DNA of 64,000 bases, taken from assembly GCA_964468315.1 (NCBI GenBank), contig CAYXTA010000002.1, positions 319-64,318 on the forward strand, given 5' to 3'. Positions 8,695-61,379 of this stretch are shown here, one piece after another (position 1 is the stretch's first letter; each line of letters opens with the position of its first letter). Position numbers and translations under genes: made by a program. The stretch is from an uncultured Candidatus Saccharibacteria bacterium. GTDB taxonomy: Bacteria; Patescibacteriota; Minisyncoccia; Phycocordibacterales; UBA9973. Below the pieces are notes generated by a model. The model had not been told where the DNA came from and did no database searches. It saw nothing but the letters and a program-made list of their open reading frames with translations.

Positions 8695-10776
8695 TTATTT
8701 TACAAGCCTATCTTTCAAGATTTTAATCTCATCGCGGAGAATTGCGGCGGTTTCGAAGTCGAGTGCTTTTACCGCTTCAGACATTTGACGCTCTTTAAGT
8801 TTTACGAGTTTACTTGGATTTTTTGCAAAAAGCTTTGCATCGAGATTTAGCTCAGCTGATACGGTTTTATCATGCAAGCTATCGAGCTCTTCAGTAATGT
8901 CATGAATTTTCTTTAAAATAGTTTTTGGAGTAATGCCATTTTTTTTGTTATACGCTATCTGTGTTTCTCTTCTTCTGTTCGTCTCCCCCATAGCACGCTC
9001 CATAGAACCAGTAATACTATCTGCGTACAGAATAACTCTACCAGCAACATTTCTAGCTGCACGGCCGATCGTTTGGATGAGCGACGTCTCACTACGAAGA
9101 AATCCTTCTTTGTCAGCATCAAGAATTCCAATCAAAGATACTTCTGGCAAATCGAGTCCTTCACGAAGTAAGTTAACACCAACTAAAATATCGAACTTTC
9201 CTTTTCGAAATTCAGTAAGGATTTTTATACGCTCGATAGTTTTAATATCACTATGAACATATTCTGATTTTATTTTTTTATCTTTGAGATATGCAGATAA
9301 ATCTTCTGCCATTTTCTTGGTGAGTGTCGTCGCTATTACTCGCCCGCCTTTTTTTATTTCAACTTCGGCTTCTTTGATAAAATCCTGCACTTGGCCAGGA
9401 TAAGGCTGAAAATTCTTTTTCTGAGAAAGTCTGGCCGAGCTATTGCGAGGAGAACCGAGGACTTTTGAAGAAGATGAATTTTCGGCAGAACTTTCAGCCA
9501 AAACAGGTCGCACTTCAAGCAATGGATCAATAAGTCCAGTAGGACGGATTATTTGTTCAACGATTTGTTCACTCTCTTTTCTTTCCACTTCAGAAGGTGT
9601 CGCAGAAACATAAATAACTTGCCCAATTCTTTTTTCAAATTCATCATACTTAAGTGGGCGATTATCTTTCGCACTTGGTAATCGAAAACCGTGTTCGACG
9701 AGTGTATTTTTTCTTGAAGCATCACCTGCATACATACCTCTTACCTGCGGAAGGGTTACGTGTGATTCGTCTATAATAGTTAGGAAATCTTTTCCAAAAT
9801 ATGAAATCAATGTCTCTGGTGCTTCACCAGGTTTTTTACCTGAAAGAATTCTAGAATAATTTTCTATACCAGAACAATAACCAACTTCACGAAGCATCGC
9901 TATGTCATACATTGTTCTTCTCTTAATACGCTCAGCTTCCAAAAGTTTCCCTTCTTTATCAAATTTTTTAAGTTGAATATTCAACTCTTGTTTTATATCT
10001 TTAATAGCTTTTTCTAATTTCTTTTTATTTGTAATGAAATGTTTTGCTGGAAAAATAAAAATACTTTTTTCTTCATCTAAAATTTTTGAACTCACTGGGT
10101 CAATTTTCAAAATCCTTTCCACTTTATCACCAAATTCAACATTATAAACAAAAGTATCAGCAACAGGCATTATCTCAACTTTGCTTCCCATTGCACGAAA
10201 AGTACCCGGAGTGAGGTCTGCATTTGTACGTTCAAAATGCATTTTTATAAGTCTGGTCAATAAATCTGTTCTTGTGACTTTATCTCCTTTTGCAATCTGT
10301 AAATTCTCTTCTTGGTATTCTTCTGGACTTCCTAAACCATAAATACAAGAAACTGAAGCAACGATAATAACATCTTTGCGAGTAAGTAATGCTTGAGTAC
10401 TAGCGTGACGCAAACGATCTATCTCTTTATTTATCTGTGCATCTTTTTCTATAAAAGTATCTGTAGTAGGCATATATGCTTCCGGCTGATAATAGTCGTA
10501 ATATGAAACAAAATAATGCACAGCATTTTCTGGAAAGAATGCGCGGAATTCTTGCGCAAGTTGAGCTGCGAGAGTTTTATTGTGAGCAATTACTAAAGTT
10601 GGTTTATTTATTTTTTGTATAACATTTGCGATGGTGAATGTTTTACCACTTCCTGTCACACCCAAAAGTGTCTGCTTGTGCATACCTTTTTTCAAACCAT
10701 CAAGCAAACTTTTTATTGCCTTTGGTTGGTCACCTGCTGGTTCAAATGGAAGTTTTAAATCAAATGTATTTTTCAT
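8695..10776 (-). CDS. uvrB: Excinuclease ABC subunit B.
   Basis: 693 aa with Walker A 'GVTGSGKTF', helicase motifs, a C-terminal UvrB/UvrC interaction region 'EAVKALDFETAAILRDEI' and the 'PTGLIDPLLEVRPV' motif. It carries a roughly 30-aa insertion right after EVRPV that includes the GC-rich element. Confidence 0.95.
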   Translation of the reverse strand: MKNTFDLKLPFEPAGDQPKAIKSLLDGLKKGMHKQTLLGVTGSGKTFTIANVIQKINKPTLVIAHNKTLAAQLAQEFRAFFPENAVHYFVSYYDYYQPEAYMPTTDTFIEKDAQINKEIDRLRHASTQALLTRKDVIIVASVSCIYGLGSPEEYQEENLQIAKGDKVTRTDLLTRLIKMHFERTNADLTPGTFRAMGSKVEIMPVADTFVYNVEFGDKVERILKIDPVSSKILDEEKSIFIFPAKHFITNKKKLEKAIKDIKQELNIQLKKFDKEGKLLEAERIKRRTMYDIAMLREVGYCSGIENYSRILSGKKPGEAPETLISYFGKDFLTIIDESHVTLPQVRGMYAGDASRKNTLVEHGFRLPSAKDNRPLKYDEFEKRIGQVIYVSATPSEVERKESEQIVEQIIRPTGLIDPLLEVRPVLAESSAENSSSSKVLGSPRNSSARLSQKKNFQPYPGQVQDFIKEAEVEIKKGGRVIATTLTKKMAEDLSAYLKDKKIKSEYVHSDIKTIERIKILTEFRKGKFDILVGVNLLREGLDLPEVSLIGILDADKEGFLRSETSLIQTIGRAARNVAGRVILYADSITGSMERAMGETNRRRETQIAYNKKNGITPKTILKKIHDITEELDSLHDKTVSAELNLDAKLFAKNPSKLVKLKERQMSEAVKALDFETAAILRDEIKILKDRLVK
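9428..9463 (+). repeat. GC-rich repeat element copy 2 (subtype B), in frame inside uvrB.
   Basis: agtctggccgagctattgcgaggagaaccgaggact. It shares gtctggccgagc...gaggagaaccgaRgac with the smc copy. It encodes ...LGSPRNSSARLSQ.... Confidence 0.6.
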
Positions 10777-10867
10777 CGAACATATAGTATAACAAAATTT
10801 AAAACCATTGACAAATAAGGATTTTATATGCTATATTTTGTATAAATAAACCTTAAAAACTTAAGAA

Positions 10868-11443
10868 ATGAAAAAAATAATTCTCTTTATCGTACTTGGG
10901 ATATATTCCATTACGACAAACGCGCAATTAATAAATGCGTATAATCCTACTGACACCGTAAAGCTCAACGAGATGATGTTAAACAACTACAACTCAAATC
11001 TTTATGGGGATGTACAAAAAATCAAATTACCAAACAAAGGGAAAAGGGGTTTTAAAAAAATAAACATATTAAAAATAAAGAAAGATAGTACTGTATTCGA
11101 AACCTTTCTTACTATAGACGAGATTACTCAAGCAAACAGAGAAAGATTGAATCAAGGTTATACTACAATAAAATTTGAAACTACAGCAAAAGCTACTATC
11201 TATGAATTAAAAGAATTGCCTGATTTTTATTATGTTGAAATCAAAGCGAGCACAAATGCCAAAGCCTACAATATTGCTTTTAGTAAAGATAAAGAAAATG
11301 TATATCAAAAAGATTCTTGGAGAAAAGGATTTATACGAAAAGTAGATATTGAAAATAGTAAAACTTTTCCCGGATTATATAACAATTTACTTGGGCTAAA
11401 AGTTAAAACAGAATTATTTAATACATGGCTAATAACAAATTAG
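10868..11443 (+). CDS. Hypothetical secreted protein.
   Basis: 191 aa with an N-terminal signal-peptide-like 'MKKIILFIVLGIYSITTNAQ'. No recognisable domain. Confidence 0.55.
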   Translation: MKKIILFIVLGIYSITTNAQLINAYNPTDTVKLNEMMLNNYNSNLYGDVQKIKLPNKGKRGFKKINILKIKKDSTVFETFLTIDEITQANRERLNQGYTTIKFETTAKATIYELKELPDFYYVEIKASTNAKAYNIAFSKDKENVYQKDSWRKGFIRKVDIENSKTFPGLYNNLLGLKVKTELFNTWLITN

Positions 11444-11449
11444 CAACAA

Positions 11450-11486
11450 AAAAACTTCCACTATATTGTGGAAGTTTTTTATTTTT
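11450..11486. terminator. Bidirectional hairpin terminator.
   Basis: aaacttccac-tatatt-gtggaagttt followed by a T-run. It sits between convergent genes 10868..11443 (+) and 11486..11821 (-). Confidence 0.55.
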
Positions 11487-11821
11487 TACAAATACATTTC
11501 ATCACGAATTTTTGTAAGCTCTGCGATGATTTTATCATCAGTGATTTTTTTAAAGCGCTCAGGAATTATCTTCCCGTCTTTTTCAAAATCTTTATCCATA
11601 AACATGGATACTTTACGAAGATCCCAATGCTTGCCAGCCTGATACACCACTTGGTTGTAGATAGGCCGATACATGACCTTTGCAGATGCTTCCAAGCCAT
11701 CGATTTCAGTATCATGACCTATTCCCATTACTTCGTAGGCGTGATCATTTATCCCCTGTTGAGGGTCATGCTTGTAATGATAATAAAATCCATTTTCGGG
11801 ATAAATTAGTTGTGTTTCCAT
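11486..11821 (-). CDS. DUF1653-like small protein.
   Basis: 111 aa. 'YYHYKHDPQQ...YEVMGIGHDTE...VMYRPIY' resembles the conserved core of DUF1653. Confidence 0.5.
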   Translation of the reverse strand: METQLIYPENGFYYHYKHDPQQGINDHAYEVMGIGHDTEIDGLEASAKVMYRPIYNQVVYQAGKHWDLRKVSMFMDKDFEKDGKIIPERFKKITDDKIIAELTKIRDEMYL

Positions 11822-11855
11822 AGGTTTATATTTTAATGTATTTTTTCCTATTATA

Positions 11856-13133
11856 CTATGCTTTATAATTTTTCAAAAACTCTTCTTTAAATTCAAAAAA
11901 AGTATCATCAAGTATTGTTTGGCGAATTTTAGCAACAAGAGAAACGATGAAATGAAGATTGTGTATTGAAGCAAGTGTACCAGCGAGCATTTCTTTGCCA
12001 TGAAAAAGATGTGCTATATATGCACGAGTATAATTTTTACAACTATAACATTCACAATCATTTTCAACTGGGGAAAAATCTTCTCTATATTTTGCATTCG
12101 TAATAATAATCTTCCCTGTTTTTGTATATAAAGTTCCATTTCTACCAAGTCGTGTAGGTAAGACGCAGTCGAAAAGATCTACACCGTTTTCAATACCCAT
12201 AAAAAGATCTTCCGGTTCACCAATACCGAGCAAGTGCCGTGGCTTTTCTTCCGGCAAAATTTCATTTACCCATTTCACAGCAGTAGACATATCTTCTTTT
12301 GCGAAAGATCCACCAATACCAAAACCATCAAAACTTTTTCCATCTACATTCATTTCAGAAATTATTTTTGCGGATTTTTTTCTTAAATTCTCTTCCCTAC
12401 CACCCTGTACTATTCCAAATAAAGCTTGTTCAAGATGCGAAATTTGTTCAGACGAATGGTCTGGCTGACTTCCCCCGAGGACCTGAGTGTGAGCAAATTT
12501 CGCATCTTCTAATTTTTTATGTTCTTCTAAACATCTTTTCGCCCATGCATGAGTACGATCAAGTGCTTCTTCTTGATATTTCACATCTTCGGCTGGTGAA
12601 GTACATTCATCAAAAGCAAAAATAATATCTGCACCAAGATTGTGTTGGATTTGAATTGATTTCTCTGGAGTAATGTAATGAATAGATCCATCTAAATGTG
12701 ATTTAAAAGAAACTCCATCTTGCCCAATCTTTGCTAGACGAGGTGCATCAGAATCATCAAATCTTTCTGGAATCATAAGTGAAGGATCAGTAATTTTTAA
12801 AACTTTCGACATATCTTTGCCATAAGCAGCACCGAGTGAGAATACTTGAAACCCTCCACTATCAGTCATAGTAGGACCAGACCAATTCATAAATTTTCCT
12901 AAGCCTCCAGCTTTTGCCACAATTTCATCTCCTGGTTGTAAAAATAAATGATAAGTATTTGCAAGTACAACTTGAGCAGAAGCATTTAAAACTTGTTCTG
13001 GGTTTAATGATTTCACAGTTGCTTTTGTTCCTACAGTAACAAAAGCCGGAGTCTGTATATCTCCATGAGGAGTACTTAGAATTCCGACTCTACCCAAACT
13101 ATTTTTTAATTTTTTTTCTATTTTAAAATTCAC
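11856..13133 (-). CDS. tgt: Queuine tRNA-ribosyltransferase.
   Basis: 425 aa. 'LGRVGILSTPHGDIQTPAFVTVGT' and 'ALFGIVQGG' are present, with C-terminal Zn ligands 'CECYSC...H'. It contains an in-frame GC-rich element (12457..12487) just upstream of ALFGIVQGG. Confidence 0.9.
   Translation of the reverse strand: MNFKIEKKLKNSLGRVGILSTPHGDIQTPAFVTVGTKATVKSLNPEQVLNASAQVVLANTYHLFLQPGDEIVAKAGGLGKFMNWSGPTMTDSGGFQVFSLGAAYGKDMSKVLKITDPSLMIPERFDDSDAPRLAKIGQDGVSFKSHLDGSIHYITPEKSIQIQHNLGADIIFAFDECTSPAEDVKYQEEALDRTHAWAKRCLEEHKKLEDAKFAHTQVLGGSQPDHSSEQISHLEQALFGIVQGGREENLRKKSAKIISEMNVDGKSFDGFGIGGSFAKEDMSTAVKWVNEILPEEKPRHLLGIGEPEDLFMGIENGVDLFDCVLPTRLGRNGTLYTKTGKIIITNAKYREDFSPVENDCECYSCKNYTRAYIAHLFHGKEMLAGTLASIHNLHFIVSLVAKIRQTILDDTFFEFKEEFLKNYKA
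12457..12487 (+). repeat. GC-rich repeat element copy 3 (subtype A), in frame inside tgt.
   Basis: tggtctggctgacttcccccgaggacctgag. It encodes ...GGSQPDHSSEQ.... Confidence 0.6.
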
Positions 13134-54249: not shown

Positions 54250-56238
54250 ATGAATTCTAAAAAAGGTATACATCATAATAAGAAAGAAAAAACAGCAGGG
54301 GGTACTATTTCTATAAACTCTAAAGGTACAGGATATGTCACTTTAGGCGAGGTAAAGAAAGATCGTAATAAAAACGAAGATGTAGAGATAGATTTCACTG
54401 ATTTAAATACTGCTTTACATGGAGACGAAGTAGAAATAAGTATCAATCCTAAAAAAATAAAAGGAAGAGTTACAGGAAAAGTTACAAAAATTATTTCTAG
54501 AGCAAAAAATGGTTTTGTTGGTATTCTAGAAAAAGAAAATGATAAGTTTTTCTTAAAACCTGATGATACTAGAATGTATACTGATATTTTGATACCGATA
54601 GAAAATTTAAACAATGCAAAAAATGGAGAAAAGATTTTCGTAGAAATAACTTCTTGGAAAGATTCATCGAAATCCCCTATTGGAAAAGTTTTGAAAGTTA
54701 TGGGTCTTCCTGGAGAAAATAATACAGAAATGTATTCTATCGCAATAGAAAGAGGTTTCGTGGCAGAATTCCCTGATAATGTAGAAAACGAAGCACATGC
54801 AATAAAAACTGCTGGTATTGGGGAGAAAGATTTTAAAGACAGACGTGATTTCAGAAATATTTTAACTTTTACAATAGACCCAGATGATGCAAAAGATTTC
54901 GACGATGCAATATCATTCAGAAAAATAAATCACAAAGATTTTGGTGATGTTTTTGAAATTGGCGTACACATAGCTGATGTTTCTCATTATTTAAAAATAG
55001 GAAGTGAAATAGATAAAGAAGCGCGCAACAGAGGAACTTCTGTGTATCTTGTGGATCGTACAATACCAATGCTTCCTGAAACTCTTTCCAACGACTTGTG
55101 TTCCCTTGTACCAAATCAAGACAGACTTTGTATGTCTGCTGTTTTTTTGATTGATAAAAATGCAAAAGTAAAAGACAAATGGTTCGGAAGAACAATAATT
55201 CATTCTAAATATCGTTTTACTTATGCTACAGCAGAAAAAGCAATTCATGAAAAAAATGAAATACTACACAAAGAACTTTCTACTTTAAATGATTTAGCGA
55301 AAAAGCTTACAAAAGAAAGATTTGCAAATGGAGCAATATCTCTCGAGCAAGAAGAAGTGAAATTTGTCTTAGATAAAAATTCAGTACCAATAAAAGTGAT
55401 TCTCAAGGAGCGTGGTGATTCAAATAAATTAATAGAAGAATTTATGCTTCTTGCAAACAGACAAGTCGCGGAAACTATCTCAACCGACGCAAAAGGTAAA
55501 AAATTAAAAATTCCACAAAGTGGTGTATTCGTCTACAGAATACACGATTTGCCAAATAAAGAAAAAATGGCTGACCTAGCAATACTTTTAAAAAGTCTCG
55601 GTTATAAAGTGAGTTTAAAAAATGGTATCATACCTTCTTTTGAATTAAATGAAATATTAAAAAAATTAGAAGGAAAAAACGAAAAAGAAACAATCCAAAA
55701 ATCTGTAATACGTTCTATGGCAAAAGCTATTTACTCTACAAAAAACATAGGCCATTACGGACTTGCATTTGAATATTATACACACTTCACTTCCCCAATA
55801 CGTAGATATCCAGATGTAATGGTACACAGACTTCTTGAAGATTATGTAAAAAATAAAAAGATAGATCAGAACAAATGGGTAGAATTTGAAAAAATTTCTA
55901 TTAAATCTTCAGAGCAAGAAAAACGTGCAGCTGATGCAGAGCGTGCTTCTATAAAATACAAACAAGTAGAATATATGAGTAAAAGAATTGGTGAAGAATT
56001 TATCGGCATCATAAGTGGAGTAACAAATTGGGGTATTTATGTAGAAGAAATGGAAACAAAATGCGAAGGACTTATACGCGTCAGTGATTTGAATGACGAT
56101 TATTATGTCTTTGATGAAAGAAAAGTAGAACTCGCAGGACAAAAAAATAAAAAGAAATACAAACTCGGAGATAAATTAAAAATAAAAGTTAAAAGTGTAG
56201 ATGCAATCAAAAAAACAATTGATTATGTTTTATTATGA
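54250..56238 (+). CDS. rnr: Ribonuclease R / RNase II family 3'-5' exoribonuclease.
   Basis: 662 aa. N-terminal cold-shock/OB region, RNB catalytic domain ('DPDDAKDFDDAISF', 'VYLVDRTIPMLPE'), and a C-terminal S1 domain. Confidence 0.85.
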   Translation: MNSKKGIHHNKKEKTAGGTISINSKGTGYVTLGEVKKDRNKNEDVEIDFTDLNTALHGDEVEISINPKKIKGRVTGKVTKIISRAKNGFVGILEKENDKFFLKPDDTRMYTDILIPIENLNNAKNGEKIFVEITSWKDSSKSPIGKVLKVMGLPGENNTEMYSIAIERGFVAEFPDNVENEAHAIKTAGIGEKDFKDRRDFRNILTFTIDPDDAKDFDDAISFRKINHKDFGDVFEIGVHIADVSHYLKIGSEIDKEARNRGTSVYLVDRTIPMLPETLSNDLCSLVPNQDRLCMSAVFLIDKNAKVKDKWFGRTIIHSKYRFTYATAEKAIHEKNEILHKELSTLNDLAKKLTKERFANGAISLEQEEVKFVLDKNSVPIKVILKERGDSNKLIEEFMLLANRQVAETISTDAKGKKLKIPQSGVFVYRIHDLPNKEKMADLAILLKSLGYKVSLKNGIIPSFELNEILKKLEGKNEKETIQKSVIRSMAKAIYSTKNIGHYGLAFEYYTHFTSPIRRYPDVMVHRLLEDYVKNKKIDQNKWVEFEKISIKSSEQEKRAADAERASIKYKQVEYMSKRIGEEFIGIISGVTNWGIYVEEMETKCEGLIRVSDLNDDYYVFDERKVELAGQKNKKKYKLGDKLKIKVKSVDAIKKTIDYVLL

Positions 56239-58142
56239 TAAAAAATATTCATCCTAAAATAAAATATATTTTTTGGGTAATATTTTCTATTACTATAGGA
56301 ATTTTTTTTGCTTTTGCTATCACAAAAACTGTTGGTTATGAAAAAATAAAAAACACAAATACTGGCAAAGAAAATATGGAAGCACAAGTAATACAAAGTG
56401 TTTCAGAAAAAAATACAGAAGATCAAAATTTTTATTTTCTTAAAAACCAAGAGAAGAAACCGAATGTAAAAGCTGAAGCTTATTTCGTAGGAGATGTTGA
56501 AAACGGAAAAATGATAATTGAGAAAAATTCAAATAACAAATTCCCTATTGCTTCTGTTTCAAAATTAATGACAGCGACTGTAGCTGAAGAGAATCTAAAC
56601 CAAGATGAAACAACTACAATAACACAAAAAGTTTTAAATACTTATGGACAAAATGGGGATTTTAAATTAAATGAAAAAATAAGATTGGGAGATTTAATTT
56701 ACCCAATGCTTTTAGAATCTAGTAACGATGCAGCAGAAGCTATCGCATCACATAACAACAGAAATTCATTTATAAAAATGATGAATGAGAAAGCTCAAAG
56801 TCTAGGACTCATATCTACTACTTTTGAAGACCCAAGTGGACTTTCCGTAAACAACCAATCCACAGCATTTGAACTTTTCAAACTTACAAAATATATCAAA
56901 GAACACAGAAAAGCTATTTTTGAAAAAACAATAAAACAAAGTTATATAACAAAAAAACACAATTGGTTTAGTACAAATCAATTCGTTAGAGAAAAAGAAT
57001 ATGAAGGTGGAAAAAGTGGTTATACTGACCCTGCAATGCAGACGGCTGTATCTACTTTCTCTATCCCTTTGGGTGAAAATGGAGTAAGACATATTGCTAT
57101 CACAGTGCTTCGTAGTCCTGATAGAAAAAAAGATGTTGAAAATATATTAACTTATCTAAAGAAAAATGTTTATTTTGGAAAAGAATCTGATGCAGACCTC
57201 GCTTGGGTAAAACAAAAAGAAAATACTGTCGAAGAATTGGAACCTGATTTCGTAAATCTCGCTTTCGTCGGAGACATAATGCTTGATCGTGGAGTCAAAA
57301 GTTCTGTGCGTAAAAACTTCGGAGGAGATTATTCAAAGCTTTTTGATAATTTAGATATTCTTAAAAAATCAGATATAGCATTTGCAAACTTAGAAGGCCC
57401 TGCTTCTGATCAGGGAAAAGACTTACGCAATCTGTATTCTTTCAGAATGGATACTTCTACAATACCAGCACTTAAGGGTGCCGGATTTGATGTCCTCTCT
57501 GTTGCTAATAACCATGTCGGTGATTGGGGTCGTACTGCTTATGCAGATACTCTTGAAAGACTTAAAGAAAATGAAATACTATATACTGGAGGAGGTATAA
57601 ATAGTGGCGAAGCAGAAAAACCAACCATTGTAGAAAAATATGGAATGAAAATAGGATACTTGGCATTCTCTGACAAAGGACCAAATGCTATGGCTGTGGA
57701 ATCAAACAAAGCAGGACTTTTACTCGCAAGCAATCCACGCTTTGATGAAATTATAAAAAATGCTTCAAGCCAAGTGGATTATCTTATCGTCTCATTCCAC
57801 TTTGGTGAAGAATATCAAAAAATACATAACGAAAGACAAACTTATCTTGCTCACAAAGCTATCGATGATGGAGCAAAAATAATAATTGGAGCGCACCCAC
57901 ATGTTATGCAAGATTTTGAAGTGTATAAAAATAGTTTCATCGCCTACTCACTCGGCAACTTTGTTTTTGATCAAAGATTTTCTGCAGATACAATGCAAGG
58001 AATGCTTCTTGAAATAAAACTTCATAAAAATGGTCTTATGGAAACAACAAAAAATATTGTTAAACTAAATTCATCTTTCCAGCCTGATCAAATAATCAAA
58101 GGCAAACCTGAAAGAGTAAAATTTCAAGAAACAAAAATATAA
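56235..58142 (+). CDS. Fusion of a D-alanyl-D-alanine carboxypeptidase (peptidase S11) with a CapA/PGA-capsule-synthesis (metallophosphatase-like) domain.
   Basis: 635 aa with an N-terminal TM. S11 motifs SxxK 'ASVSKLMTA', SxN 'LESSNDAA' and KTG-like 'GKSGYT'. The C-terminal half has CapA-family motifs ('FVGDIMLDRG', 'VANNHVGDWG', 'GAHPHVMQ', 'YSLGNFVFDQ'). Confidence 0.75.
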   Translation: MIKNIHPKIKYIFWVIFSITIGIFFAFAITKTVGYEKIKNTNTGKENMEAQVIQSVSEKNTEDQNFYFLKNQEKKPNVKAEAYFVGDVENGKMIIEKNSNNKFPIASVSKLMTATVAEENLNQDETTTITQKVLNTYGQNGDFKLNEKIRLGDLIYPMLLESSNDAAEAIASHNNRNSFIKMMNEKAQSLGLISTTFEDPSGLSVNNQSTAFELFKLTKYIKEHRKAIFEKTIKQSYITKKHNWFSTNQFVREKEYEGGKSGYTDPAMQTAVSTFSIPLGENGVRHIAITVLRSPDRKKDVENILTYLKKNVYFGKESDADLAWVKQKENTVEELEPDFVNLAFVGDIMLDRGVKSSVRKNFGGDYSKLFDNLDILKKSDIAFANLEGPASDQGKDLRNLYSFRMDTSTIPALKGAGFDVLSVANNHVGDWGRTAYADTLERLKENEILYTGGGINSGEAEKPTIVEKYGMKIGYLAFSDKGPNAMAVESNKAGLLLASNPRFDEIIKNASSQVDYLIVSFHFGEEYQKIHNERQTYLAHKAIDDGAKIIIGAHPHVMQDFEVYKNSFIAYSLGNFVFDQRFSADTMQGMLLEIKLHKNGLMETTKNIVKLNSSFQPDQIIKGKPERVKFQETKI

Positions 58143-58233
58143 AAAAATCCCCCTGCATTTTCATACAGAGGGAATTTCAATTCGCACAAAGTCCAAAGGG
58201 TCAAAAGAGACCGAAGTGAACAAAAATAAAGTA

Positions 58234-58914
58234 CTACTTGCGAACACCCGCGAACCACCAGTAGTCACCCCAGTCACCGTCATAACGGCGGACACTCAGG
58301 TCCCGCTCGTCAACATCGCGGCGGAAAACGGCATAACACCACTTTCCATCTCCATCTTTCCATTGAGTTCCGTTAGGATGCTCATCGGCAAAAGCAGGGT
58401 CAGCTTCGTTTACTGCGGCTTGTGAATACGGATCGGCAGGTTTTAATCCACGCAATGCATATTCTTTTTCCAGGTCATCCATACTTATCTGGCGTCCGAT
58501 TTTAAAGAAGATAACTTCTGTTTCTTCGGTTTCGCCTTTGGGTATTGTTTTCAGCACGCTGTCGTCCACATACTGGTTTCTGCCAGTAGCTTTCAGAGCT
58601 TCTTTGGCAGAACGGTTGCGGTTTACTTTTACAACGCGGATAATCATATTCGAGATTGCTTCAACGCGTTTGCGGATTACAGCAAATAGCTCACCTGCAA
58701 GTTCGGGGATGCCCAGAACTTGTTGTATAAGATTGCTGGGAAGCTCGGCTTTGTGCTTCTGCAATTTTGCGTTTAACAACTCTTTTAACTTACCGATTTG
58801 ACCCTCGGTAATGGGTTCTGATGGGGTTATGGTCTTTTCCATAGCGTCATAGATTTGATTTGATTGCGTCCCGCAATAGAGGGCTAGACAGTCGTAGTCA
58901 TAGCTAGGAAACAT
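58234..58914 (-). CDS. Hypothetical protein encoded in a compositionally foreign GC-rich island.
   Basis: 226 aa from the ATG at 58914 (the ORF track starts one codon earlier at a TTG). Local GC is markedly higher than the flanks. The C-terminus is Trp/Asp/Gly-rich ('WKDGDGKWCYAVFRR...YDGDWGDYWWFAG'). No family recognised. Confidence 0.55.
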   Translation of the reverse strand: MFPSYDYDCLALYCGTQSNQIYDAMEKTITPSEPITEGQIGKLKELLNAKLQKHKAELPSNLIQQVLGIPELAGELFAVIRKRVEAISNMIIRVVKVNRNRSAKEALKATGRNQYVDDSVLKTIPKGETEETEVIFFKIGRQISMDDLEKEYALRGLKPADPYSQAAVNEADPAFADEHPNGTQWKDGDGKWCYAVFRRDVDERDLSVRRYDGDWGDYWWFAGVRK

Positions 58915-59042
58915 CAAATGATTTAATGTCTTTTAGCTATGACTACAAGTAGTACTTATTGGGAAAGAACCTTAATTACTAGGATTAAGTATAGCATAGA
59001 TGGTGGTAAAAGTCAATGATAAATACTCTTGTAAATTAAGCC

Positions 59043-61379
59043 TTATTTTGCAATAGCTGCAGCTTCTTCGAATTTCACTGAGAGGAGTTTAGAACCTCCA
59101 TCAGAGCCAACGGTAACGCCGTAGAGGACACCAGCACGAGACATAGTCTCACGATTGTGAGTGACGACGATGAGCTGTGAATGGTGCGAGAGTTTTTCGA
59201 GCATATCTCCATATTTACGAGAATTCGCTTCGTCGAGCGCTGCGTCTGTCTCGTCGAGGACGAGGAATGGCGGAGGGTTCACTTGTGACACAGCAAAAAG
59301 AAGTGCGATAGATGTGAGTGATCTTTCCCCTCCTGAAAGAGCTTGAAGTTCTTTCACTTTTTTATGTGGAAGAGAAACACTGATTTCAATACCATGTTCA
59401 AAGACAATAGCTTCTTCGTCTATTTCTTCTTCATCTTTCTTGCCTCTTTTTTGTTCTGCGACAACAGAAAGAAATGCAGAACCTCCCCCGAACATAAGAG
59501 CAAAGAATTCTTGGAATTCTTTATTGATTTTTGTAACACCAAGTTTAAATTCAGTATCTATCTTTTCTTTAAGATCGAGCATTAGCTTACGAAGTGATTC
59601 TATGCTCATAGAAAGATCTTCCATTTCTTTTGCAAGGAATGCATCTCTATCTCTCACCTCTTCAAATTCTTTTAATACTTCAGTTGTACCTCCAAGTCCA
59701 GCATCTTCGAGTTTTATTTTAATGCGTTCGATTTTTCTACGACGTTCTTCTTGATTTTCTCTTGATTCATCGATATTTTCTATTTGAAAATTCTTATATG
59801 ACAAAATATCTGCACCGAGAAATATTGAACCTTCTCGTATTTGATCTTCAAAGCTAGTCATAAGGCGAGCGTAACTTTCTTCTTTTATAGCAATAGTATT
59901 TAAAGACGAAATGAGTTCTTGTTTTCTAACAGCAAAATCAAATTTGTTTTTTTGTATTTCTTGAAAAGAAAAATTATCTTTTTGTATTTCATTTTTCAAA
60001 TTTTCTAATGCTTGAGCAAACTTCCCTTCTTCATCTTCTATCTTACTCATCTCTGCGAGAATTTCTGTTTGAGTATTTTTCAAATTTTCTAGATTATTTT
60101 GATTCTCAAAAGCATCAGTTATGTGTTCTTGCGAATGGTCTGGCCGAGCGGAGTGAGGAGAACCGAAGACCTGAGCAGGAGCACTAACTGATGCTGTTCT
60201 AATAAAGCGATCCAAGATATCTTTTATCTTTCCTAACATCGGTGCAATGTTTTCTAAAACATCTATGTACATAGCTTCTTCTATATATTCATTTAACTCT
60301 TTATAGAAAGAATCAAAATCTTCTTTTGAAATACTTACTTTGTCGTTTGTATGTTCTTTTACTTGAGTTTCATTATGTACAACTGGTGCGCGATTGCTTT
60401 CCATTTCTATCATAGCTTCTATGCGACCAAGTTTACGTGAAAGTTCACTTTTTATATTTCTTATTTCTGATATTTTCTTTTCAAGATCTCGTATTTCTAT
60501 ATTCTTTAAATTTTCAGTATTTGGTGTTGTATTTTCTATTCCTGATATTTTTCCAGAAATAACTTCAATTTCATTTTGAATACGCTTTTTATCTTCTAAA
60601 AAAGAAGTATTTTGATTTTCTAAATAAAGCGCTTCTCTTTTTAAATATTCACGAGAAAGATCAAGAAGTTCTATCTTTAGTTCTTTTGCTTTTTCTAATT
60701 TCTCTACTTGTTTACGCAAAAAATTAAGATGTGGAGCTATTTCTTTACGAAGAAGTGAAACTTCTTTCATATTGTTTGTAGTACGGTCAAGTTTACGCTC
60801 ACTTTCTTTTATTTTGTATTGATATATCTTGAGTCCGAGTGCATCTTCGATCATTTCTCTTCTGTCTTTCGCTGAAGCATTAAGTATTCTATCTGCTTCT
60901 CCTTGAGAAATAATATGGTGACCAGAAGAACCAATGTTCACAGATGAAAGCAAGGTCATAATATCTTTCAAACGAACTTCTGATCCATTGAGAGAATATT
61001 TATTTAAACCATCAGAAAAAACTTCACGAGAAACAGTAATGTGTTCGTAATTTAAATTTACTTTATCACCATTTTCATTTTCTAATTTAAAAACCTTATC
61101 AGTATTGTTGAAACAAATAGAAACAGAAGCACGAGAAGATTTTGGTAGTGTTTTTGAGCCTTTGAAAATAAGATCAAGCCCTGCTTTCCCACGCATTGAT
61201 TTGATGGATTGTTCACCAAGTACGAAACGTATCGCTTCTACGACATTAGACTTTCCAGATCCATTAGGACCAACAACAGATGTGATAGAACTTTGAAACT
61301 CTAAAGAAGTTTTTTTTGCGAAAGATTTGAAACCATTTATTTCTAAAGATTTAAGTCGCATAGAAATTAATCGAGCCAA
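59043..61379 (-). CDS. smc: Chromosome segregation SMC-family ATPase, short form.
   Basis: 778 aa. N-terminal Walker A 'GPNGSGKSN', long coiled-coil regions, C-terminal signature 'LSGGERSLTSIALLFAV' and Walker B 'FLVLDETDAALD'. It is about 400 aa shorter than canonical SMC. It contains one in-frame GC-rich element (60127..60166). Confidence 0.8.
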   Translation of the reverse strand: MARLISMRLKSLEINGFKSFAKKTSLEFQSSITSVVGPNGSGKSNVVEAIRFVLGEQSIKSMRGKAGLDLIFKGSKTLPKSSRASVSICFNNTDKVFKLENENGDKVNLNYEHITVSREVFSDGLNKYSLNGSEVRLKDIMTLLSSVNIGSSGHHIISQGEADRILNASAKDRREMIEDALGLKIYQYKIKESERKLDRTTNNMKEVSLLRKEIAPHLNFLRKQVEKLEKAKELKIELLDLSREYLKREALYLENQNTSFLEDKKRIQNEIEVISGKISGIENTTPNTENLKNIEIRDLEKKISEIRNIKSELSRKLGRIEAMIEMESNRAPVVHNETQVKEHTNDKVSISKEDFDSFYKELNEYIEEAMYIDVLENIAPMLGKIKDILDRFIRTASVSAPAQVFGSPHSARPDHSQEHITDAFENQNNLENLKNTQTEILAEMSKIEDEEGKFAQALENLKNEIQKDNFSFQEIQKNKFDFAVRKQELISSLNTIAIKEESYARLMTSFEDQIREGSIFLGADILSYKNFQIENIDESRENQEERRRKIERIKIKLEDAGLGGTTEVLKEFEEVRDRDAFLAKEMEDLSMSIESLRKLMLDLKEKIDTEFKLGVTKINKEFQEFFALMFGGGSAFLSVVAEQKRGKKDEEEIDEEAIVFEHGIEISVSLPHKKVKELQALSGGERSLTSIALLFAVSQVNPPPFLVLDETDAALDEANSRKYGDMLEKLSHHSQLIVVTHNRETMSRAGVLYGVTVGSDGGSKLLSVKFEEAAAIAK
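60127..60166 (+). repeat. GC-rich repeat element copy 5 (subtype B), in frame inside smc.
   Basis: tggtctggccgagcggagtgaggagaaccgaagacctgag, encoding ...FGSPHSARPDHSQ.... Confidence 0.6.

Follow-up and report, generated by a model that had tools for sequence, protein, structure and literature searches.

A GC-rich island next to smc as an orphan and probably remote target cassette of a Patescibacteria-type diversity-generating retroelement

What kind of gene occupies a small GC-rich island in an otherwise AT-rich stretch of Patescibacteria DNA, and does its composition betray a foreign origin? The question is raised by 64,000 nucleotides (nt) of contig CAYXTA010000002.1 from an uncultured Candidatus Saccharibacteria bacterium, hereafter the window, in which a single open reading frame (ORF) on the minus strand is located between smc and a gene for an S11-CapA protein. 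A preliminary description of the window had singled out this ORF as foreign-looking, and its composition is indeed exceptional. The 609-nt gene has a GC content of 0.473 as compared to a window mean of 0.321 (standard deviation 0.042, 609-nt segments), and its GC content at third codon positions (GC3) is 0.458 against 0.199 ± 0.054 in 45 host ORFs, with the excess being strongest at silent sites. All 15 of the GC-richest 609-nt segments of the 64 kb are located at 58141–58281, and the plus-strand GC content climbs from approximately 0.30 to 0.42–0.52 between positions 58100 and 58900. As shown below, the gene almost certainly encodes the variable protein of a diversity-generating retroelement (DGR), and the island is very likely a self-contained transcription unit for such a variable (target) protein of the Patescibacteria type. 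The gene is an orphan target, with no template repeat (TR), reverse transcriptase (RT) or Avd within 64 kb.

The longest minus-strand ORF covers 58234..58917 if started at a TTG codon, or 58234..58914 from an ATG codon as described previously. This open frame exists, but the real gene is shorter: homologues of approximately 200 aa, including the 100% identical 202-aa protein P0001, place the true start at ATG 58842. The gene is thus assigned to 58234..58842 on the minus strand (202 aa plus stop codon), based on the homologues, the alignment, the DGR parts beside the homologues and structure models. The reported lack of a Shine-Dalgarno sequence holds also for the revised start, since none precedes ATG 58842 (AAATCTATGACGCT and then ATG), whereas most family members have GGAGG. 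The full pre-start sequence is GGAGG-ATGACGCC-ATG in most relatives and AAATCT-ATGACGCT-ATG in the clade of the window. The ATGACGCC motif (ATGACGCT in the window, 58843–58856) abuts the start codon, holds an out-of-frame ATG and is conserved at the nucleotide level across the family.

The homologues comprise 756 proteins of approximately 200 aa from Patescibacteria, in records from Paceibacteria, Nomurabacteria, Parcubacteria and similar hosts, all annotated only as "hypothetical". The protein had been called unassignable at first, and no named family was recovered here either. The window protein gave nothing below E = 0.08 against Pfam, NCBIfam, PHROGs and PADLOC, 61 family members had zero matches in Pfam, and the family profile had zero significant matches to PDB sequences. 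However, the search for homologues and their genomic context points to a DGR variable protein, and little of the novelty is left.

Downstream of the gene, relatives encode an RT of the RVT_1 family, often with bAvd in between. In two of these (L004 and L006), a copy of the final 100 nt of the gene, which correspond to the variable region (VR), lies 460 nt downstream with 82% identity. The 18 mismatches between VR and TR all coincide with adenines of this downstream copy. The survey covered 84 non-redundant loci, 7 of them too short for a verdict. Among the 77 informative loci, 46 contained a TR as well as RT/Avd, 3 contained only a TR, 6 only an RT and 22 neither within up to 10 kb. A TR in cis was thereby identified at 49 loci, and RVT_1 and/or bAvd 0.5–1 kb downstream of the gene at 52 loci. 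Template adenines accounted for 794 of the 857 VR-TR mismatches in the family survey. Complete elements are also present in close relatives of the window gene, namely L091 (77%) and L009 (76%). Thus, the RT, bAvd and TR sequences beside the homologues, in combination with mismatches at adenine sites, leave very little doubt that the gene encodes a DGR variable protein.

Other details of DGR organization were observed at individual loci. In L006 (7091–7462) and at many other loci (for example L055, L060 and L085), bAvd occupies the space between TR and RT but is encoded on the opposite strand, divergent from the RT. Tandem target copies are present in L040 and L050. Locus L004 carries a second, different DGR (9423–12181), which encodes an Lcl_C (DUF1566-type) protein and has a further ORF in which an Asn-rich Lcl_C-like segment is joined to RVT_1, followed by a serine recombinase gene. 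In L111 (near 10615) and L117 (near 5854), the family gene ends in a template-like sequence, followed by the usual TR 3' flank (CGCAAC TC..TTCATTTCTCTCCC), and the gene end of L111 shows only 2 adenine-site differences to the TR of L103. Both cases look like VR-TR recombination with deletion of the spacer.

The protein alignment displayed a conserved scaffold, KWCYAxFxRWxxxRxVxVxRxxxDWxDxWWFAGVRK, in which the x positions are hypervariable. The AlphaFold model, with a predicted local distance difference test score (pLDDT) of 93.4 for the full length and 91.7 for residues 98–202, consists of a helical N-terminal part and a C-terminal C-type-lectin-like domain (about 58237–58551). When the C-terminal domain was used as the query in Foldseek, approximately 35 of the top 50 PDB matches were C-type lectin-like domains, including CLEC9A, NKR-P1B, LOX-1, BDCA2 and CD23 with TM scores of 0.44–0.54 and probabilities of up to 0.77. 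The E-values were weak, and the top PDB matches include no solved DGR protein. The VR models as being displayed on a C-type-lectin fold, and the target protein is presumed to bind a ligand. No family members were found in 2.9 million viral contigs (IMG/VR), and a phage origin was rejected on these grounds.

Has the orphan gene of the window itself been diversified? Its VR is located at 58238..58337 on the minus strand, as delimited by TR matches from L004 and L006 and by comparison of alleles. The two TRs match the window only at 58238–58312, which is the VR itself. We compared four orphan cassettes in all six pairs: the window copy, L089 from the same locus, L001 and L172. The third codon positions of the VR showed 0 differences out of 33 in each of the six pairs, whereas 27–36% of the third positions in codons 125–168, just upstream of the VR, differed in five of the six. 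At first and second positions, the VR divergence among the orphan pairs was 18–30%. Between the window and L089, which differ by approximately 13% from +117 to +575 of the gene, all 16 VR mismatches are located at positions 1 and 2 of NNY codons. In the comparison with L091, which has a different template, 33% of the VR third positions differed, as elsewhere in the gene.

The four orphan alleles contain 25 variable sites, at 58263–58329, and all 25 are compatible with adenine in a single deduced Asn-rich TR encoding WCYAIFNRDDDERNMNVNNNDNDWNDNWWFAGVR, which is closely similar to the real templates of relatives. Its nucleotide sequence would be GCCATTTTCAACCGCGATGATGACGAGCGGAACATGAATGTCAACAATAATGACAATGACTGGAATGACAACTGGTGGTTCGCGGGTGTTCGCAA, followed by C instead of GTAG. 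Silent-site homogeneity with a sharp boundary at the VR is interpreted as the trace left when a conserved template is copied repeatedly. A precedent is provided by L061 and L069 from one Taylorbacteria metagenome-assembled genome, which are divergent paralogues with VRs that both fit the single TR in L069. In line with rewriting in trans, the 3' stem-loop is kept in the orphans.

The mechanism that we propose is as follows. A complete element of the family comprises the target gene, a TR of approximately 100 nt located 330–450 nt downstream, often bAvd, and then the RT. The TR RNA would be reverse-transcribed with misincorporation opposite adenines, and the cDNA would replace the VR, that is, the last approximately 100 nt of the gene. 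The outcome would be that approximately 12–18 AAY-templated codons are randomized on a C-type-lectin-like binding domain. The window copy appears to keep the acceptor side, consisting of the VR, the invariant GC-rich 3' end, the stem-loop and its own promoter, leader and terminator, and would most likely be a remote target that is rewritten by a TR and RT elsewhere in the genome. We find it reasonably probable that the window target was rewritten in trans after the orphan cassettes had diverged, in which case a trans-acting TR/RT should be present elsewhere in the source genome. It is from the substitution pattern only that we read this in-trans relationship, the donor not having been found.

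A number of observations weigh against rewriting in trans. The window and L173 have the same VR, as do L001–L003, which represent three runs, and no within-population hypervariation is visible in the consensus assemblies. The VR differences between the window and L089 are located in a larger recombination tract and were possibly imported with the allele. Searches for the donor were likewise negative. Self-blastn of the window and comparison with TRs revealed no second VR/TR-like copy in the 64 kb, and only chance matches (E > 0.3) were obtained when three RTs linked to the family and one bAvd were searched against the window by tblastn. A cognate TR/RT for the window clade was found neither within ±6 kb in L001 nor in the 173 fetched loci. 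None of 83 TRs fits the orphan VRs of the window clade, the best having 14 non-adenine mismatches. An exact VR-derived pattern had 0 matches in metagenome contigs; its T at codon 194 (first base) probably corresponds to an A in the TR, as later alleles suggest, so that the pattern was unable to match the TR, and it also missed the VRs. The corrected pattern had 0 matches in viral contigs. A search for related loci in metagenome contigs recovered only relatives of at most 62% identity.

Alternatively, the gene may be a relic, once a DGR target but since deprived of TR, Avd and RT through loss or through a copying event that left them behind, and its frozen VR would now serve in a binding protein of fixed specificity. 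The lack of TR, RT and Avd in the 64 kb agrees with this, as do the 22 informative loci with neither TR nor RT, the truncated RTs without TR in L007, L010 and L044, which indicate that decay is common, the identity of the VR across independent samples, and the loss of the GGAGG ribosome-binding site of the family in the window clade. However, if the VR had been frozen before the cassettes diverged, drift would be expected in it as much as elsewhere in the gene, and the identical third positions and the sharp boundary described above speak against this. Furthermore, the ORF, the invariant 3' end and the stem-loop are intact, the leader is conserved, and the window, L089 and L172 have an identical 3' flank over 84 nt. 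Taken together, a frozen relic is conceivable but rather unlikely, and a remote target rewritten in trans is favoured.

Could the island instead be an assembly artefact in which an AT-rich contig took up reads of another, GC-richer organism? Only the sudden shift in composition, which had led to this suggestion, speaks in favour of it. Two ENA assemblies (L089 and L090) are colinear with 56360–59807 of the window over 3.4 kb, without gaps and at 94.4% identity, and L173 (JGI 3300043411) is 100% identical over 57899–58915, a segment of 1017 bp that spans the target and the CapA junction. The arrangement smc – target – S11/CapA is present in all three of these independent assemblies, and the intergenic flanks of the cassette are 98.5–100% identical to those of L089. 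The same junctions in three independent assemblies rule out an assembly chimera, the probability of which we consider negligible.

The preliminary description had also suggested a recent horizontal acquisition, which the data do not bear out in that form. The same cassette of approximately 0.88 kb, with the same left boundary at 59019, is found in at least three genomic contexts among close relatives with 78–86% protein identity. In L001 it is located between a hypothetical gene and efp, and in L172 in yet another context. No RT was seen beside these two cassettes in the stretches read, with the L172 contig ending 84 nt past the gene. The presence in at least three contexts shows that the cassette was moved or exchanged at some point. 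The divergence between the window and L089 is mosaic, such that 0% stretches (for example 57907–58257) alternate with tracts of 12–20%, which are located inside the S11-CapA gene (57257–57857) and the target gene (58268–58726). This pattern points to homologous recombination between strains. The several genomic contexts of the cassette, the exchange of alleles by recombination and a GC3 of 0.46 as compared to 0.20 in the host would all fit a recently acquired foreign island or mobile cassette that owes its GC excess to a GC-richer donor.

However, other data argue against such a recent transfer. The locus is not strain-private, but is common to a relative that is approximately 94% identical over 3.4 kb, with near-identical junctions. 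No direct repeats flank 58143–59019 and no tRNA is nearby, the only ones being located at 2.0 and 18.5 kb, although no dedicated integrase search of the window was made. The family is absent from viral contigs, as noted above. Most importantly, the GC excess is family-wide: the target is GC-richer than its flanks at 78 of 79 loci, by 0.12 on average. Among the 46 complete elements, the GC content of the target is 0.11 higher than that of the flanks (higher in 45), whereas that of the adjacent RT averages 0.04 lower (higher in only 4). The GC content of the RT tracks that of the host (r = 0.85, as compared to r = 0.51 for the target), which indicates that the excess belongs to the gene and is not a consequence of element transfer. 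As the neighbouring RT is not GC-rich, the excess was ruled out as a mark of whole-element transfer. A recent foreign origin is therefore improbable in our judgement.

As for the cause of the excess, GC3 is 0.68 in the VR and 0.41 in the rest of the gene. Rewriting of adenines to any nucleotide accounts for the former value but not for the latter. Adenine avoidance was ruled out, since the sense strand contains more A than T. Biased gene conversion tied to the recombination of target genes is one candidate. Family targets have an average GC3 of 0.66, with examples in L021 (10001–12486), L035 (10001–12494) and L086 (10001–12497). A second GC peak of 0.515 was observed at 59100–59300 of the window, in the conserved C-terminal ATPase part of smc. 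Thus, short GC peaks alone are not unusual here, but the GC3 of the target is.

The cassette as a whole, equivalent to the GC-rich island, was assigned to 58143..59019 on the minus strand on the basis of how far its nucleotide homology to cassettes in other contexts extends. Its identity is 87% to L001 over 58143–59019 and 86% to L172 over 58150–59019, so that homology to other genomes starts at 59019 and ends at 58143–58150. The cassette is flanked by the stop codons of smc (59043) and of the S11-CapA gene (58142). These limits indicate that the island corresponds to one complete transcription unit. At its upstream end, a consensus scan identified a candidate sigma-70-type promoter at 58988..59016 (minus strand), composed of TTGACT, a 17-nt spacer and (TG)TATACT. 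It matches 10 of 12 consensus positions and has an extended -10 element, and TTGAC..TATA(C/A)T is found at the same position in relatives, suggesting that it may work as a promoter. A leader of 150 nt separates the promoter from the gene. In addition to the large hairpin discussed below, the leader contains a second small hairpin, ATTGCGGGACGCAAT, read from the sequence at 58863..58877 (minus strand) and kept as ATTGCGGGAYGCAAT in L001, L009 and L012.

The 3' end of the VR is an invariant GC-rich stretch, ACTGGTGGTTCGCGGGTGTTCGCAA, at 58238..58262 on the minus strand, which is the same in all four orphan alleles. In relatives, the equivalent stretch is common to VR and TR, and homology stops at CGCAA. 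By its position, and by analogy with Bordetella phage BPP-1 (PMC3240598), it may serve as the initiation of mutagenic homing (IMH) site. A two-tier stem-loop, GTTCA-CTTC-GGTC-TCTTTT-GACC-CTT-TGGAC, is located 13 nt past the stop codon at 58191..58221 (minus strand). Per-sequence folding against shuffles gave a minimum free energy of -9.5 kcal/mol and z = -3.2 for the window, and a mean z of -2.6 over 104 non-redundant 3' flanks of the family, in which the stem sequences differ. This procedure was used because RNAalifold on a MAFFT alignment of the family 3' flanks yielded no consensus structure. The stem-loop is a putative target-recognition hairpin of the DGR. It is followed by an intrinsic terminator (58138..58173 or, in a second delimitation, 58148–58173; minus strand), with an 11-bp stem, a 4-nt loop and a T run, which borders directly on the stop codon of the S11-CapA gene, convergent with the target. 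Both structures are contained in the 91 bp between the target stop codon and the S11-CapA gene. The downstream neighbour (56235–58142) is a single 635-aa ORF, named an S11-CapA fusion in the preliminary description for an N-terminal serine-type D-Ala-D-Ala carboxypeptidase and a C-terminal PGA_cap domain. The PGA_cap match was confirmed on the L173 fragment only.

The preliminary description had also drawn attention to a 13-bp inverted repeat, which is present as a perfect match between arms 58894–58906 and 58934–58946 and extends to 15 pairs when wobbles are included, far above chance. It does not bracket the start codon as had been proposed: the spurious upstream TTG/ATG is all that it encloses, and the real start is located approximately 50 nt downstream. 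The repeat forms the outer stem of a conserved 5'-leader RNA hairpin at 58891..58949 (minus strand), which was identified by conservation, covariation and a covariance model. In the window, the 13–15 bp outer stem is followed by an AAAG/TTCC internal loop and an inner stem of 7 bp. A hairpin of the same architecture occurs 45–135 nt upstream of the start codon in 66 of 129 non-redundant upstream regions of the family: the outer stem is built around CAYAGC/GCTRTG, the internal loop reads AAAG/TYTC and the inner stem is variable. Only the outer stem had served to select these 66 sequences beforehand; neither the inner stem nor covariation had. In their alignment, 95.5% of the cells are paired and 19 of the 21 pairs show compensatory changes, values that were reached by 0 of 500 shuffles and not approached by register shifts.

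The covariance model (R1) scored 65.8 bits on the sense strand of the window and 45.6 bits on the antisense strand. An independent scan of 1.24 Mb of loci with R1 gave matches upstream of family genes, with the exception of a few extra ones (L022, L078). The extra copies are located in L022 (12255–12313) and L078 (1779–1834), where they probably precede second target genes and thus suggest several targets per DGR, and in L050 (1933–1995 and 3850–3916), where they precede the two tandem target copies. The leader has a folding z of -5.6, and the frequent G-U pairs on the sense strand argue for an RNA rather than a DNA operator. A search of the window and the locus against Rfam 15 identified two tRNAs elsewhere and, for the hairpin, only chance matches to miRNA models (25 bits as compared to thresholds of at least 89). 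Possible roles of the hairpin are mRNA stabilization, protein binding or translational control, the last of which is made more plausible by the loss of the Shine-Dalgarno sequence in the window clade. Regulation through the leader may occur, though not by enclosure of the start codon as in the translational gating suggested in the preliminary description.

These features may be combined into a broader scenario, which we put forward as speculative and rather doubtful. The DGR "acceptor cassette" of 0.88 kb, with its promoter, structured leader, C-type-lectin-like gene, IMH-like end with stem-loop, and terminator, would be portable, relocating or being exchanged between sites and strains, while a highly conserved master TR/RT located elsewhere would keep rewriting it in trans. 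The leader, whose hairpin is seen only ahead of this target family, would represent an undescribed class of cis-regulatory RNA that controls the expression of DGR targets, and the GC3 excess would be a by-product of recombination or cDNA conversion.

What, then, is the island? The compositionally odd and unassignable ORF is now a recognizable part of a known hypermutation system: a real orphan, and probably remote, DGR variable-protein cassette of a widespread unnamed family in Patescibacteria. Since the window copy has no RT nearby, catalogues built around the RT would not list it. Stand-alone targets of this kind, which escape such catalogues, make up approximately one-quarter to one-third of the family loci. 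Silent-site homogeneity confined to the VR offers a sequence-only test for past diversification in trans. Two features of the family seem to be undescribed, namely the covarying, target-specific leader hairpin and a GC3 excess in the target that is not shared by the RT. In the host-dependent Patescibacteria, the target proteins are candidates for adaptable binding modules. Cellular DGRs of the Patescibacteria (candidate phyla radiation) are reportedly also covered by Paul et al. (2017, Nat Microbiol 2:17045).

Among characterized variable proteins, the archaeal AvpA (PMC5006420) and TaqVP from Thermus (PMC6328139) were retrieved neither by Foldseek nor by the profile search of PDB sequences, and the likeness is therefore in fold class only. 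Within these limits, they share with the window protein a compact C-type-lectin-like domain of approximately 100 residues, a VR on the C-terminal strands and the lack of a signal peptide or membrane anchor. In BPP-1, the IMH and the downstream hairpin/cruciform suffice to direct diversification to a heterologous gene (Guo et al. 2011, PMC3240598). The window family differs from this system in that its protein has no detectable sequence similarity to Mtd, its stem-loop is two-tiered and located 13 nt past the stop codon, and the element is chromosomal in an episymbiont-type bacterium rather than carried by a phage. The shared features are a VR at the 3' end of the gene, an invariant GC-rich VR end in common with the TR, a stem-loop shortly downstream, here of putative function, that recurs as a structure but not as a sequence, and variable residues on what models as a C-type-lectin-type fold.

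DGRs with multiple or remote targets, such as the VR-VR-TR-RT arrangement (PMC11661182) and, reportedly, the cyanobacterial systems (PMC7517822), have one TR that serves several VRs. The family offers parallels in L061 and L069, which share one TR, and in the tandem targets of L040 and L050, whereas for the window the donor was not found. The closest counterpart is a cellular DGR clade restricted to Patescibacteria with targets that lack recognizable domains ("DGR clade 2"), described in a study that defined 24 target protein clusters and noted that remote targets are known and missed by RT-centred surveys (Roux et al. 2021, PMC8144416). The window copy differs from this clade by having no TR, Avd or RT within 64 kb. 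It agrees with the clade in the hosts, in the target, TR, bAvd and RVT_1 RT of its relatives, and in adenine-specific VR/TR mismatches. The similarities extend to a small target with a C-terminal VR and with no recognizable domain or transmembrane segment, and to a cellular rather than viral setting.

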